64,000 bases of DNA. It comes from Olleya sp. Bg11-27. Lineage in GTDB: Bacteria; Bacteroidota; Bacteroidia; Flavobacteriales; Flavobacteriaceae. The DNA lies in the NCBI RefSeq assembly GCF_002831645.1, contig NZ_CP025117.1, positions 563,514-627,513 of the forward strand. The letters are read 5' to 3'. A program made the translations under genes and the position numbers. The notes under the pieces were generated by a model. It was not told where the DNA came from. It saw only the letters and a program-made list of their open reading frames with translations, and searched no databases. Below, in pieces: positions 22,223 to 34,460 of this stretch (within the stretch, counting starts at the first letter, position 1; each line of letters begins with the position of its first letter).

Positions 22223-23134
22223 ATGCTCGACGTTAAAAACCTTACCTTTTCTTATAATAAAACACCTGTTTTAAAAGATATTTATTTCACTGCTAATCAA
22301 GGTGAAAATGTTGCCATTATTGGCGAAAGTGGCTCAGGAAAAAGCACCTTGCTAAATCTTATTTTTGGCGAATCCGACTTAAATCAAGGCCAGATTTTCT
22401 GGAAAGACAACGAAATTTTAGGCCCTAAATACAATTTAGTTGTCGGTTACGAATTCATGAAATACGTCTCTCAAGAATTTGACTTGATGCCTTTTATAAC
22501 CGTTGAAGAAAATATAGGCAAACACCTGTCTAATTTTTTTCCAGAAGAAAAAAAAGAACGCACCGCAGAACTTCTAGAAGTCGTAGAGCTTACAGAGCTT
22601 GCTAAAACCAAAGTAAAAACTTTAAGTGGTGGACAAAAACAACGTGTAGCATTAGCTCGTGCGTTAGCAAAACAGCCCGAAATTATTTTATTGGACGAGC
22701 CTTTTAGTCATATTGACAACTTCCAAAAACAATCGCTTAGACGTAATGTGTTTAGATATTTAAAAGATAAAAACATTACATGTATCGTTGCAACCCACGA
22801 CAGAGAAGATGTTTTAGGTTTTGCAGACAGAATGATTGTTTTATATGACAACAAAATTGTTGTTAATGATAGCCCAGAAAATTTATTCAAAAATCCAGAA
22901 GCACCATTAATAGCTTCGTTTTTTGGTGAGTTTAATATAATTAACGCCTCGATAATTTATGCGCATCAATTAAAAATGGTATCACATTCTGAGCTTAAAG
23001 CGACTGTAATACATTCTTATTTTAAAGGACACTACTACTTAATTGAAGCTTTATTAGATGACGATATTGTGTTTTTTGAAAACAAAATTTTATTAGAAAA
23101 AAATCAAACCGTTTATCTTCAAAAACAACTATAG
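22223..23134 (+). CDS. ABC transporter ATP-binding protein (solo ATPase)
   Basis: Walker A GESGSGKST, signature LSGGQKQRVALARAL and Walker B ILLDEP. Start moved to the ATG after the upstream terminator; the track ORF starts at 22193, inside the hairpin. Confidence 0.8.
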   Translation: MLDVKNLTFSYNKTPVLKDIYFTANQGENVAIIGESGSGKSTLLNLIFGESDLNQGQIFWKDNEILGPKYNLVVGYEFMKYVSQEFDLMPFITVEENIGKHLSNFFPEEKKERTAELLEVVELTELAKTKVKTLSGGQKQRVALARALAKQPEIILLDEPFSHIDNFQKQSLRRNVFRYLKDKNITCIVATHDREDVLGFADRMIVLYDNKIVVNDSPENLFKNPEAPLIASFFGEFNIINASIIYAHQLKMVSHSELKATVIHSYFKGHYYLIEALLDDDIVFFENKILLEKNQTVYLQKQL

Positions 23135-24850
23135 ATCTTCACGTTCGGCATACTGCAATTCATTAGGTAATTCCACTGAAGAAAACTCCAAATGCAATAC
23201 ACGACGTCTTTTTTGCACCGTTGTTTGAGAAGAGGCATGCAATAATAAAGGTTTTATTAACTGCACACCGCCAGCAGCAACTTCACTGACAAAGGGAATT
23301 GAATTATTAGAAATAAGTTGTATTTCTTCATCATTTAAACGTTTATTGTGTGACCCCGGAATCACTTTTAAAGCCCCATTTTTAATTGTCGTATCATCCA
23401 AATGAATACGCATCGCGAAAGTGTTTTTAGAAATATTTTCAGGTGGACAAACACTAATGACTCCTTTTTTATTAGTCCATGACTTAAACCCCTCAATTTC
23501 TACTTTTTCAGAAACATTTATAGGTACATCTTGATGCCAGCTAACATACCAATTGTCCTTTGGTGATTTATCAAAATAAATAGCTTTAGTTAAAAACACG
23601 TTTTTACTGATTGAGTTAATCAGTTTCTTACAATTCTTATTAAATAAAATATCTTTTAATTCTGGCACCTTTTTTAAGACTTCACGCATTCCAAAAGTCT
23701 GCTCACCATGCGTTTTTATATAAGTATCCAACCTCGCTTTTAGTTTTCTAATATCTCTTTTTGAATACACGTGATTTAAAATTCCAAAACCTTTATACTC
23801 TAATCGTTTTGCAACGGTACGTAGATTCTTATCATTAATTTCTGTCTCGTAAGCATCCACAGCATCATACAAACGTTCTTTTATATTTCGCTTTAAACGT
23901 TCTGGAGCAATTACTTTTACGCCTTCGCCTAGACCTAAAATTTCTTTTTCGAGCTCAAAATTTAGCTGCACGTCCAAAGCTATTGTTACACCATAATTAT
24001 CACGACTAACTTCTCTCTGAGAATGATGAAAAGGTTTCGTTAACACATAAGGCGCGTGTCTATGATTAACGTACAGCAACACAGCATCAGGGTCTAAATG
24101 TGGACTTACAGAAACCCCAATAACATCCTTATAATATGTTTCGGAATTAAATGTTGCATCAAAGACAAAACTATTTTCACTTTTATTTAAGGCAAATATC
24201 CGGTCTAAAGCTAAATTCATTACCCCTTCATTTTTGTTTCGTTTACCTATAATAAACCAGCGGTTTCTAAATTCTTTTAGCAAATACGGATGAAACACAA
24301 AGGTGTTTTCTTGTCTAGCCTTAAAGGATTGGTAAGTAATATCTATCGCTTCTTTCTTCAAAATAAACTGATAGAGTTTATCTAAATATTTTAAACCTTT
24401 TAAGTTGTCATTTTTTTCGAAATCTATTAATGACTTCTCATGTGTTTTTTGAGTATACACATGGTCTTCTAGTTTTTGAACCATGCTACCCAATTCATCA
24501 AAATGAGAAAAACCTTGAAACTGTTTTAAAAAAGAAACCGCTTCCGACAACTTAGTTAAATCTTGATTAGAAATCGGACTATTTGTAATACTATACTCTT
24601 CAGTTTCATATTTATAATACTTCCTATTGTAAACTACAATTGGTGCATTATAACCCAATTTGTCGCTACGCATCATTTGCAAGTCCAATTGCACTGTACG
24701 TTTACTAACATCTACATCTTTACCTTCATAGTCATACAAGGCATCAGAAACCGCTTCAATTAAATCATTAAGCGTCCATTGCTTAAAATTGTTTTGAAGG
24801 CATTTATCTATGGTTTTGTAGCGGATTAATGCGTTTTTATTTACTGCCAT
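23129..24850 (-). CDS. WYL-domain transcriptional regulator (HTH-WYL-WCX) fused to C-terminal PhyH-like Fe(II)/2OG dioxygenase domain
   Basis: N-terminal HTH (VSKRTVQLDLQMM). WYL core ITYQSF...FHPYLLKEFRNRWFIIGK...LALDRI. WCX-like segment, then WHQD, ALKVIPGSH and LLLHASSQ facial-triad motifs of phytanoyl-CoA dioxygenase-type oxygenases. Confidence 0.6.
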   Translation of the reverse strand: MAVNKNALIRYKTIDKCLQNNFKQWTLNDLIEAVSDALYDYEGKDVDVSKRTVQLDLQMMRSDKLGYNAPIVVYNRKYYKYETEEYSITNSPISNQDLTKLSEAVSFLKQFQGFSHFDELGSMVQKLEDHVYTQKTHEKSLIDFEKNDNLKGLKYLDKLYQFILKKEAIDITYQSFKARQENTFVFHPYLLKEFRNRWFIIGKRNKNEGVMNLALDRIFALNKSENSFVFDATFNSETYYKDVIGVSVSPHLDPDAVLLYVNHRHAPYVLTKPFHHSQREVSRDNYGVTIALDVQLNFELEKEILGLGEGVKVIAPERLKRNIKERLYDAVDAYETEINDKNLRTVAKRLEYKGFGILNHVYSKRDIRKLKARLDTYIKTHGEQTFGMREVLKKVPELKDILFNKNCKKLINSISKNVFLTKAIYFDKSPKDNWYVSWHQDVPINVSEKVEIEGFKSWTNKKGVISVCPPENISKNTFAMRIHLDDTTIKNGALKVIPGSHNKRLNDEEIQLISNNSIPFVSEVAAGGVQLIKPLLLHASSQTTVQKRRRVLHLEFSSVELPNELQYAEREDL

Positions 24851-24890
24851 TTTCTAAAATATTTCTTGTAATTTATAAGAAAATATCTAG

Positions 24891-24909
24891 TACGCAAAAA
24901 GATTGCGTA
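24891..24909. promoter_or_regulatory. Perfect palindromic operator TACGCAA-aaaga-TTGCGTA in divergent promoter region
   Basis: Exact 7-bp inverted repeat with a 5-bp spacer, between the WYL-regulator start (24850) and the ORF at 24943. Near-identical copies at 30253 and 32920. Confidence 0.55.
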
Positions 24910-24942
24910 TCAAAGCTTATTCTTTGTGTCAAATAATAAACA

Positions 24943-32919: not shown

Positions 32920-32938
32920 TACGCAAAAAGATCGCGTA
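32920..32938. promoter_or_regulatory. Operator copy 3 (TACGCAA-aaaga-TCGCGTA) plus conserved promoter module upstream of rtcB paralog 2
   Basis: One mismatch to the palindrome. Flanked by the same ~55-bp module as copy 2 (aactacgcaaaaagat...tatcatatttgtagtgtaatta). Confidence 0.5.
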
Positions 32939-33015
32939 ACACACTATCATATTTGTAGTGTAATTAGGATGTCAATCAAAACAAAGCGAAGATTCTCATC
33001 AAAAAAGAAACAACA

Positions 33016-34419
33016 ATGAACACAAAAATAACAGGAAACGATTTAATAGCCTTAGGATTCAGACAAGGAAAATGGATGAAAGACGCCATTACACATATTA
33101 ACAAAAACAATTTAAAAGACGACGAAATGATCGACTATTTAGAGCAATTCAAATCTCCAGATCCTATCGCATTACATAAAAGTCCAATAGATTTTTCTAT
33201 AAACATTAAAGCAGAAAACGAAGAAGAAAAAGGGAATGTCAAAAAAGTGATAAACTCTATGCAAACCTTAATGAAAACACCAACATTAGTTGACGGCGCT
33301 ATTATGCCCGATGCCTGCCCTGCAGGTCCAGACGGCACCATTCCGGTTGGTGGAGTTGCGGTTGCAAAAAACGCCATTCATCCAGGCATGCATAGTGCAG
33401 ATATTTGCTGTTCTGTCATGCTTACGGATTTTGGTACTGCAGATCCAAAAGCTGTTTTAGATGCAGCACACGCAAACACACATTTTGGACCAGGCGGAAG
33501 AGATAGAGACTTGCAATTTAGATTACCTGAAACATTAATAGACGCTTTTGAAGCTAACTACTTCTTAAACGATAGCAATATGATGCAAATTGCAAGATCA
33601 CATTTAGGAACTCAAGGGGATGGTAATCATTTTTTATTTGTTGGTAAATCTAAAAAAACAGGAAATACCATGATGATTACACATCATGGTTCTAGAGGTC
33701 CAGGAGCAAAACTATATACAAAAGGGATGAAAGTAGCCGAACGTTTTAGAAAAGAATTATCGCCAGAAACAATGAAACAAAACGCGTGGATTCCTTTCGA
33801 AACAGAAGAAGGACAGCGTTATTGGGAAGCTTTACAAACCATAAGAGATTGGACCAAATTAAATCATGAAGTGATTCATAATACTGTAGCAGAAACGTTA
33901 GCTATTACTATTGAAAACAGGTATTGGAACGAGCATAATTTCGTTTTTAAATCTGGTGATTTATTTTACCACGCTAAAGGCGCAACACCTTTAGACGCCA
34001 AGTTTATGCCTGATATTACAGGCCCAAGGTTAATCCCTTTAAACATGGGAGAACCTGTTTTAATTGTTGAAGGTAACACCACAGCAACCAATTTAGGATT
34101 TGCACCTCATGGAGCTGGTAGAAATGTAAGTAGAACGCAGCATAGAAAAAGTAAAACAGGAACTACTATGCAAATCTTTAAAGAAGAAACTAAAGGTTTA
34201 GATATTAGATTTTTCTCAAAGGAAACTGATATTACAGAGTTACCAAGCGCCTATAAAAATGCACAAGCAGTAAGAACACAAATGGACGAATTTAATCTTG
34301 GTAAAGTCATTGACGAAGTGATGCCTTACGGTTGTATTATGGCTGGAGATTTTCAGAAAAATGCACCGTGGAAAATTAAGAGAGAAAAGAAAAGAGCTAG
34401 AAATAAAAGCAAACCTTAG
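33016..34419 (+). CDS. rtcB: RtcB-family RNA ligase (paralog 2)
   Basis: Motifs [44 protein letters not shown] and PHGAGR. N-terminal segment LIALGF is shared with paralog 1. Confidence 0.9.
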
Positions 34420-34428
34420 AAAGGAAAA

Positions 34429-34460
34429 AGCGGACCAGCTTAGGTTGGTCTGCTTTGTTA
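34429..34460. terminator. Hairpin terminator between convergent rtcB2 and PPTase genes
   Basis: gcggacca...tggtctgc hairpin with flanking A/T runs. Confidence 0.55.

Follow-up and report, generated by a model that had tools for sequence, protein, structure and literature searches.

We analysed a 64,000-nucleotide stretch of the genome of Olleya sp. Bg11-27 (contig NZ_CP025117.1, positions 563,514 to 627,513), hereafter the window, in which positions 23129-34460 hold ten open reading frames (ORFs), a tRNA-like region and three copies of a palindromic operator, according to the ORF list and to Pfam and NCBIfam scans. Judged by sequence, this block comprises two adjacent RNA-repair modules. Module A (26154-30245, + strand) encodes a basic protein, RtcB, a Pol-beta nucleotidyltransferase (NTase), PrfH and a TPR protein. 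Module B comprises a WYL-WCX-PhyH regulator and three operator-bearing promoters, which lead into orfB, into a unit of a DUF6331 gene, a tRNA, a structured non-coding RNA (ncRNA) and an SPFH gene, and into a second RtcB gene. An original prediction made from the letters alone had described an RNA-repair and ribosome-rescue island between efflux genes and a polyketide synthase cluster. Its gene calls were borne out, apart from orfB, which it did not mention, and the families of RtcB, PrfH and the second RtcB were confirmed. The flanks are also as it had claimed, with AcrB, OEP and ABC ATPase genes upstream and phosphopantetheinyl transferase (PPTase), ketosynthase (KS), FabA-like and SDR genes downstream. 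A terminator-like hairpin (34427-34456, + strand) ends the block.

For comparison, a genome scan with the SPFH protein gave 80 Flavobacteriaceae loci, or 81 with the window, which were compared using a tblastn matrix, ORF clustering and gene-order maps. A second set of four loci was anchored on PrfH and inspected within 10 kb. The closest species-representative locus was that of Algibacter lectus, with an SPFH protein 94% identical to that in the window.

The regulator (23129-24850, - strand, 573 amino acids) joins a winged helix-turn-helix (wHTH)-WYL-WCX part to a PhyH-type 2-oxoglutarate (2OG)/Fe(II) oxygenase (Pfam WYL 8e-11, WCX 3e-06, PhyH 8e-11). The HxD...H iron triad and the 2OG-binding Arg are present, and H439, D441, H538, R549 and R550 were invariant among 17 diverse members of the family. 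The fused domain is in these residues consistent with an active 2OG/Fe(II) oxygenase. In the AlphaFold2 model the PhyH domain was confident (pLDDT 80-93) and the linkers were of low confidence. The N-terminal half matched the WYL activators DriD and PafBC (Foldseek to 8tp8, 9pfv and 9fnd at 1e-10). A fold search with the C-terminal half matched only generic PhyH-fold small-molecule oxygenases, and for this reason no substrate can be read from it for the oxygenase. DriD of Caulobacter and PafBC of mycobacteria share the wHTH-WYL-WCX fold and likewise go with palindromic sites, which overlap the upstream promoter element in a small regulon of stress genes. The window regulator differs from them in its additional C-terminal PhyH domain and in a putative regulon of RNA repair rather than DNA damage.

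The WYL-WCX-PhyH family was widespread and well conserved in Bacteroidota, where it formed at least 120 clusters (60% identity or more). Flexithrix (Cytophagia) has, on the divergent side of the fusion gene, an operator-like site (TACGCAAAAAGGATGCGCA) together with a small ORF, two YrlA-like modules (38.4 and 36.7 bits), a near-identical AAGAAGGTCACTTGCAAAAATCGACCACC motif, Band_7 and RtcB. In Roseivirga it lies beside Ro60/TROVE, a YrlA-like RNA, RtcB and two RlaP genes. The regulator family thus appears, from these neighbourhoods, to be tied to RtcB systems with an SPFH or a Ro60 scaffold alike, and since it accompanies SPFH in Flexithrix and Ro60 in Roseivirga, the two look like interchangeable partners, in line with the proposal of Burroughs and Aravind. 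A 196-amino-acid protein after RtcB in Roseivirga was considered as a homologue of the window NTase and rejected, as the two are not homologous. Separately, Winogradskyella sp. PG-2 (L086, 3714-20637) has an island with a PhyH-less WYL regulator in which fragments of RlaP, an RNaseH_like gene and a free-standing 2OG oxygenase of AlkB-like type (PF13532) sit between the PrfH operon and SPFH-RtcB. The separate oxygenase beside a PhyH-less regulator is a weak hint that oxygenase chemistry is part of the system.

The promoters of module B share an operator, TACGCAAAAAGATTGCGTA, a 19-bp palindrome of the form TACGCAA-N5-TTGCGTA. Allowing at most one mismatch, there were exactly three sites in the window (24891, 30253 and 32920) where 0.05 were expected, and none of 100 shuffles reached three. 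Operator 1 (24891-24909) lies in the divergent intergenic region of the regulator and orfB, operator 2 (30253-30271) in a conserved promoter and leader block (30251-30370) before the DUF6331-tRNA-ncRNA-SPFH unit, and operator 3 (32920-32938) upstream of the second RtcB. Each of the three palindromes has a TTTG element 13 nt downstream of its end, a spacing that places it over the upstream promoter element. Across the 81 loci (1.56 Mb) the motif was found 58 times, against 0.25 in shuffles, and 50 of these sites were upstream of the ncRNA (20 loci), RtcB2 (19 loci) or the WYL gene (11 loci). The operator and its promoter were 140-640 nt upstream of the ncRNA in many loci. This pattern suggests an inducible-looking regulon, as had been predicted. 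The prediction that three promoters have the operator in common also agrees with the three sites found, but none precedes the RtcB-PrfH operon, and the same scan found no operator in module A. The idea of one larger system under one operator is therefore only half right. A strong hairpin at 30337-30368 (GCTCCACCAG...CTGGTGGAGC) was noted in the leader after operator 2, within the widely conserved block; it could be a processing or attenuation site.

Behind the DUF6331 gene we found a type-II Tyr-like tRNA gene with anticodon AUA (30688-30773, + strand; ARAGORN and Rfam, the latter at 52.4 bits) and no encoded CCA. It has a cloverleaf, a long variable arm, G1-C72 and A73, all canonical features of tRNA-Tyr, but not the canonical anticodon GUA. 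The 96%-identical copy in A. lectus has GUA (a G34A difference), relative to which the A34 of the window is a point change. In an Aquimarina locus (L017) the corresponding tRNA has an A34 of independent origin. Decay, a decoding oddity or escape from Q/G34-specific anticodon nucleases may lie behind the change. The possibility that AUA marks one conserved special tRNA was rejected, as the ARAGORN 'Tyr(ata)' calls mix two unrelated things. One of the genes so miscalled is an odd conserved tRNA-like gene (GTGTCTATAGTGTAATGGCTCGCAC...) located directly before tRNA-Phe at array ends in several genera (L021:7948, L022:141, L032:8088, L041:8148, L042:8085, L045:8727, L049:9074).

A tRNA-like array had been predicted at this place. 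The tRNA-like region is indeed there, but it consists of one tRNA and one long structured RNA and is not a tandem array. Arrays were found in many relatives (L006, L013, L020-L067 and others), where 5-19 tandem tRNA genes with many anticodons (Rfam 31-76 bits) occupy the interval between the TPR gene and SPFH that holds a single tRNA in the window. The relatives' arrays resemble the L-array of Anabaena in their tandem tRNAs, their linkage to rtcB and to translation or RNA-processing genes, and a shared promoter motif (PMC8421152). Unlike the Anabaena array, those of Flavobacteriaceae are bracketed by the TPR gene and the ncRNA-SPFH unit, and the regulator and the motif are different.

The structured ncRNA is at least 310 nt long (30774-31085, + strand) and was recognised by homology and covariation. 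Homology to other loci begins exactly at 30774, the first base past the tRNA. A general rule that the ncRNA starts at the tRNA 3' end was rejected, since a gap of 0 was seen only in the window, L047, L053 and L074. The first 100 nt or so were more than 90% identical across genera, and were thus more conserved than any protein of the locus (64-94% for SPFH). The 5' domain was detectable in 77 of 80 loci. This domain (30774-30898, + strand, 125 nt) is formed by P1-P4, where P1 (30775-84 with 30855-65) encloses hairpins P2 and P3, and P4 occupies 30875-98; it matched no Rfam family. It is followed by two modules, each with the layout of a tRNA after circular permutation at the anticodon loop. In module 1 (30900-30966) a 5-bp anticodon-like stem (30900-04 with 30962-66) brackets a T-arm, a loop-closed acceptor-like hairpin and a D-arm. 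In module 2 (30973-31030) the T-arm is followed by a closed acceptor hairpin and then by a D-arm, to which most relatives add an anticodon arm with a variable loop. A hairpin (31033-47) and a covarying GGUC/GACC stem (31061-81) complete the RNA. A candidate AAG/CUU pseudoknot arm beside this stem was not counted because the alignment was too unstable there. In L068 (9306-9656) the T-loop of module 1 carries a 21-nt GC-rich insertion.

Covariation was assessed in an alignment of 69 loci (A1). RNAalifold returned 68 pairs, 47 of them with compensatory changes. The structure that was tested had 74 pairs, including two added stems that were inferred, and 54 of the 74 change on both sides. Cells were paired in 96.7% of cases, compared with 80.7% in column shuffles and 37-43% with slid partners. 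The covariation score was 0.51, against 0.20 in shuffles (none of 500 reached it) and about 0.1 when slid. Single-sequence folding gave a z-score of -2.9. A permissive Rfam scan produced sub-threshold YrlA and tRNA matches between 30880 and 31065, with the YrlA model (RF02553) at 27.9 bits, below its gathering threshold of 69. The YrlA-type order of T-arm, closed acceptor hairpin and D-arm within an anticodon-like stem is present and helices 6-9 covary, while the YrlA outer stems, including the Ro-binding stem, were unmatched in the model alignment. None of the ten window proteins matched Ro60/TROVE in Pfam.

The gene downstream of the ncRNA (31451-32551, + strand) encodes a soluble SPFH/stomatin-like ('slipin') protein of 366 amino acids (Band_7 2e-30), with the stomatin-type domain at residues 170-341 and no segment resembling a transmembrane helix (maximum KD19 1.06). 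RtcB ligase 2 (33016-34419, + strand, 467 amino acids) is a divergent paralogue with the HGAGR motif (Pfam RtcB 1e-38; phrog_1075 6e-95). The two genes are 465 nt apart, and the same pair was found in many genera and in Flexithrix. The interval from SPFH to operator 3 also holds a weak match to the Flavo-1 RNA (32578-32714, - strand, 19.6 bits), which scored 50-51 bits at the corresponding position of L001 and L017, together with a perfect-looking hairpin with 29-nt arms (32829-32905).

Two further genes lie behind module B promoters. The acidic 172-amino-acid product of orfB (24943-25461, + strand), downstream of operator 1, had no Pfam family and no informative match in PADLOC, PHROGs or PDB sequence searches; it co-occurred with the regulator in 16 loci. 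The DUF6331 protein (30382-30675, + strand, 97 amino acids) is variable cargo behind operator 2 and was missing from the orthologous locus of A. lectus. Downstream of orfB, a block of about 320 nt (25464-25785) was 74-91% identical in a dozen genera. It contains a promoter-like TTTG...TAAATATTTG, an ORF of 25 amino acids (MYIFISNQNRPKGILPFMMLREYFS; 25636-25713, + strand) with this promoter-like site of its own, and an intrinsic terminator (25732-25779). Of 13 relatives, 12 retain the small ORF although its nucleotides have changed. Upstream of it, at about 25494-25506, is an invariant palindrome, AATACTTCGTATT.

All five genes of module A are on the + strand. The first (26154-26843) encodes the basic protein of 229 amino acids (isoelectric point 9.9, 22.7% K+R), for which Pfam, PADLOC, PHROGs and PDB sequence searches gave no family or PDB match. 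Its end overlaps the start of RtcB ligase 1 (26828-28219, 463 amino acids; Pfam RtcB 1e-81; HGAGR nucleotidylation motif) by 16 nt. This RtcB is the partner of PrfH; it is co-oriented with prfH and only the NTase gene lies between them. The NTase ORF (28287-28877) probably starts at 28323, giving 184 amino acids, because its orthologues align from M13. Winogradskyella sp. PG-2 and a Flavobacteriales bacterium carry these orthologues, 82-84% identical, next to prfH. The protein had been called Lnu-like. It does carry a GG...DIDIF Pol-beta motif, but its family matches were all below threshold (Aminoglyc_resit 1e-3, Lnu 2e-3), RlaP (PF10127) was not matched at E<=0.01, and there was no informative match in PADLOC, PHROGs or PDB sequence searches. 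PrfH (28994-29689, 231 amino acids) scored 217.9 bits with TIGR03072 (cutoff 166.65) and contains SGPGGQ, with the GGQ motif. Its residues 1-226 align over the full length to the 231-amino-acid PrfH of PDB 9mor/9mq4 (258 bits), which together with its length places it in the PrfH-CT class of Flavobacteriia, defined by 225-250 amino acids and a basic C-terminal tail (PMC12829566). The gene of the TPR protein with its Lys-rich tail (29694-30245) follows. Module A recurs in L083 and L086, and in both the basic protein is again upstream of RtcB. About ten loci have, ahead of their first-type RtcB, a 98-amino-acid protein with an S24/LexA-like 'GNSMLP' motif (cluster c11, e.g. L005:5438-5734), which the window lacks.

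The original prediction considered the island undescribed-looking, which was not borne out for either module. The RFH-RtcB operon is known (PMC6514570), as is PrfH-CT (PMC12829566), and in 2016 Burroughs and Aravind had already predicted that RtcB occurs with a tRNA-like RNA ('b7a-tRNA') and a Band-7 protein, as quoted in a preprint (bioRxiv 10.1101/312249). Extended RFH(PrfH)-RtcB operons have PrfH with GGQ, RtcB, TPR, NTase and charged protein genes, as module A does (PMC6514570, PMC9304027, PMC12829566). The RFH-RtcB core accretes a TPR gene, a non-RlaP Pol-beta NTase and a highly charged helical protein without homologs, which the basic 229-amino-acid protein resembles (PMC6514570). The Flavobacteriia PrfH-CT has been characterised biochemically and structurally in the C. 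gingivalis protein, CgPrfH, which like the window PrfH has 231 amino acids and a basic tail (PMC12829566; PDB 9mor). The class rescues ribotoxin-damaged and non-stop ribosomes alike (PMC12829566), and RtcB seals 2',3'-cyclic phosphate/5'-OH breaks, including the colicin E3 cut in 16S rRNA. From its gene content and sequences, module A is to be regarded as a member of this described kind. It differs from the published operons in lying inside a WYL-regulated SPFH/RtcB locus; some relatives keep PrfH and TPR with the second-type RtcB only.

Module B, on similar grounds, is a member of the kind predicted in 2016. The b7a-tRNA systems, as quoted, share with it an SPFH protein proposed as a Ro60-equivalent scaffold, an adjacent tRNA-like RNA and RtcB. 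In contrast to the systems in that quotation, the window combines what looks like an authentic tRNA with a longer RNA (at least 310 nt), in which a 5' domain of 125 nt is followed by two permuted mimics and a 3' stem, and it has a WYL-PhyH regulator with a defined operator. The rsr-yrlBA-rtcBA system of Salmonella, activated by RtcR, is alike in that a ligand-sensing regulator controls a tRNA-mimic RNA whose gene adjoins those of RtcB and a scaffold protein. Compared with that system the window lacks Ro60/TROVE, RtcA, RtcR and sigma-54, and compared with YrlA its RNA has two tandem mimic modules and an unrelated 5' domain, with SPFH as the candidate scaffold. Nothing further on b7a-tRNA, or on WYL linked to RtcB, was found in the accessible literature. 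In the same literature we found no WYL-PhyH family, no link of it to SPFH and Ro60, and no bracketing of arrays by TPR and RNA-SPFH, although the 2016 prediction may contain these.

The check that the original prediction proposed, whether its genes ever co-localise in related genomes, had a positive outcome, as they recur together in other genera. RtcB was present in 44 of the 81 loci and a TPR gene upstream of SPFH in 55. The WYL regulator occurred in 28 loci, in 17 as a 336-amino-acid form without PhyH and in 11 as the 573-amino-acid fusion, and the WYL(-PhyH) gene was usually the divergent neighbour of the second-type RtcB in many genera. The coupling of genes across relatives is recurrent but loose.

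We consider it moderately probable that the locus is a composite RNA-damage response locus of two modules, in which A provides ribosome rescue and repair and B is a WYL-PhyH regulon. This reading starts from the gene content, RNA structure, operator placement and co-localisation, all established by sequence comparison. In module A, PrfH-CT would free the peptide from ribosomes stalled by a 16S rRNA cut or a non-stop mRNA, and RtcB would reseal the 2',3'-cyclic phosphate/5'-OH break, by analogy with the homologues of E. coli and C. gingivalis for which this has been shown. The NTase, TPR and basic proteins may act as accessory factors of the module. In module B the regulator, as a dimeric factor of the DriD/PafBC type, would bind TACGCAA-N5-TTGCGTA, and the three promoters would drive orfB (and probably the regulator gene), DUF6331-tRNA(AUA)-ncRNA-SPFH, and RtcB2. 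Nucleic-acid damage products may be sensed by the WYL domain, comparable to the sensing of tRNA halves by the CARF domain of RtcR. On such a signal the regulator would alter transcription of orfB, the tRNA-RNA-SPFH unit and rtcB2; repression and an activation like that by DriD and PafBC are equally plausible. Much as a Y RNA binds Ro60, the ncRNA with its two permuted mimics may bind a soluble SPFH oligomer, and the particle so formed would serve RtcB2 by presenting or holding broken tRNAs. The fused, apparently active oxygenase might act on damaged or modified RNA or on a ligand, and the tRNA, or the arrays in relatives, would replenish the tRNA pool. We infer the protein-RNA binding, the inducing signal, the direction of control and the oxygenase substrate in this scheme.

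Several observations weigh against it. The composition of the locus is fluid: RtcB is missing within 10 kb in 37 of the 81 SPFH loci, PrfH is present in only 29, and two of the four PrfH-anchored loci lack SPFH. A functional coupling of A and B is conjectural, because module A has no operator and is absent from the locus of the nearest species (L001). Module 2 of the ncRNA lacks its anticodon arm in the window and in L011, and there is no terminator-like site between 30774 and the SPFH start. The PhyH-fold matches were all small-molecule oxygenases and gave no pointer to an RNA substrate. The b7a-tRNA was stated to be unvalidated in the 2018 preprint through which we know the prediction (bioRxiv 10.1101/312249). 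Finally, the composite RNA (5' domain, two permuted mimics and 3' stem) and the operator were not found in Rfam 15 or the accessible literature, but may be contained in the 2016 prediction, which was reached by secondary quotation.

It is possible, if doubtful, that the two modules are mere neighbours, an RtcB-PrfH operon inserted next to an unrelated SPFH/RtcB regulon with no interplay between them. The missing operator before module A would fit this, as would the A. lectus locus, where regulator, orfB, TPR, tRNA, ncRNA, SPFH and RtcB2 remain without module A, and the PrfH operons that stand alone in Aquimarina aquimarini and in bacterium 33_180_T64. However, the 29 loci with PrfH within 10 kb of SPFH belong to many genera, and the other two of the four PrfH-anchored loci carry Band_7 and a second RtcB within 10 kb. 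The TPR gene, always next after PrfH, is nevertheless kept before the tRNA array, ncRNA and SPFH in 26 loci without PrfH. In at least seven loci (e.g. L004, L008, L010-L012, L014, L037) PrfH and TPR are found without RtcB1 but with RtcB2.

A stronger form of the composite-response reading can be offered as a tentative extension. Here SPFH and the RNA of at least 310 nt would form a Ro/vault-like ribonucleoprotein with a dedicated RtcB, a reserve tRNA array in relatives, and a WYL sensor whose 2OG oxygenase reads or repairs damaged or modified RNA. The locus would then be a self-contained, inducible tRNA-damage response, with SPFH and Ro60 interchangeable under one regulator family.

Instead of a trans partner of SPFH or RtcB, the conserved RNA might be a tRNA-mimicking regulatory element that acts in cis as the 5' leader of the SPFH mRNA and is recognised by a tRNA-binding factor or through RNase P/Z processing, which we think unlikely. 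Besides the missing terminator, the ncRNA was always upstream of SPFH and on the same strand in the 81-locus set, and weaker conservation reaches to about 130 nt before the SPFH start codon. Its most conserved part, however, is 580-680 nt from that codon and exceeds the protein in conservation. The closest model, YrlA, is a stable trans-acting RNA at the same position relative to rsr (bioRxiv 10.1101/312249), and the YrlA-like RNA of Roseivirga sits downstream of rsr.

Less likely again is an anti-phage defence or counter-defence island, in which tRNA arrays and mimics would serve as decoys or spares against anticodon nucleases. WYL regulators commonly control defence systems, and PADLOC WYL models matched the regulator. 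The array tRNAs of relatives include classic targets of anticodon nucleases (Tyr, His, Asn, Asp, Lys, Arg, Glu and Gln), the anticodon loops of module 2 vary between genera, and A34 has arisen twice independently in the Tyr tRNA by the ncRNA. The Anabaena array, which is induced by translational stress and co-regulated with rtcB, has been discussed as a possible sponge (PMC8421152). Against this, the WYL domain was the sole PADLOC match, the locus shows no integrase or mobile-element signature, its ABC ATPase flank is syntenic across genera, and viral contigs held no close relatives of the ncRNA motif, SPFH or RtcB2. The anti-phage role that the original prediction entertained accordingly gained no support, although a defence function would overlap a composite RNA-damage response more than exclude it. 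Outside the block, a GIY-YIG ORF (35550-35867, - strand) lies between two near-identical copies (ORFs 35444-35653 and 35879-36049, with ...KIKIFITITNMKNQCQSELVEDQ... in common); this arrangement within the KS/acyl carrier protein/PPTase cluster (35444-36049) resembles a small mobile insertion.

That the tRNA-like pieces are functionless remnants of the relatives' array, as the single tRNA with its odd AUA anticodon and the armless module 2 might suggest, is very improbable, being contradicted by covariation, with the permuted order kept and compensatory changes in every helix across the 69 aligned loci, and by an ncRNA that is present with or without an array and is found also in Flexithrix, a member of another class.

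We know of no substrates, signals or cofactors for bacterial RtcB systems beyond rtcBA and RtcB-PrfH. The present locus offers an RNA supported by covariation, a 19-bp operator and a regulator family that links SPFH-based and Ro60-based repair, together with genomes that differ naturally in whether they have tRNA arrays, PrfH or the first RtcB. Its study could open the roles of soluble SPFH proteins and tRNA mimics in RNA repair, sensing by WYL domains beyond DNA damage, and the function of an active-looking oxygenase carried on a transcription factor.

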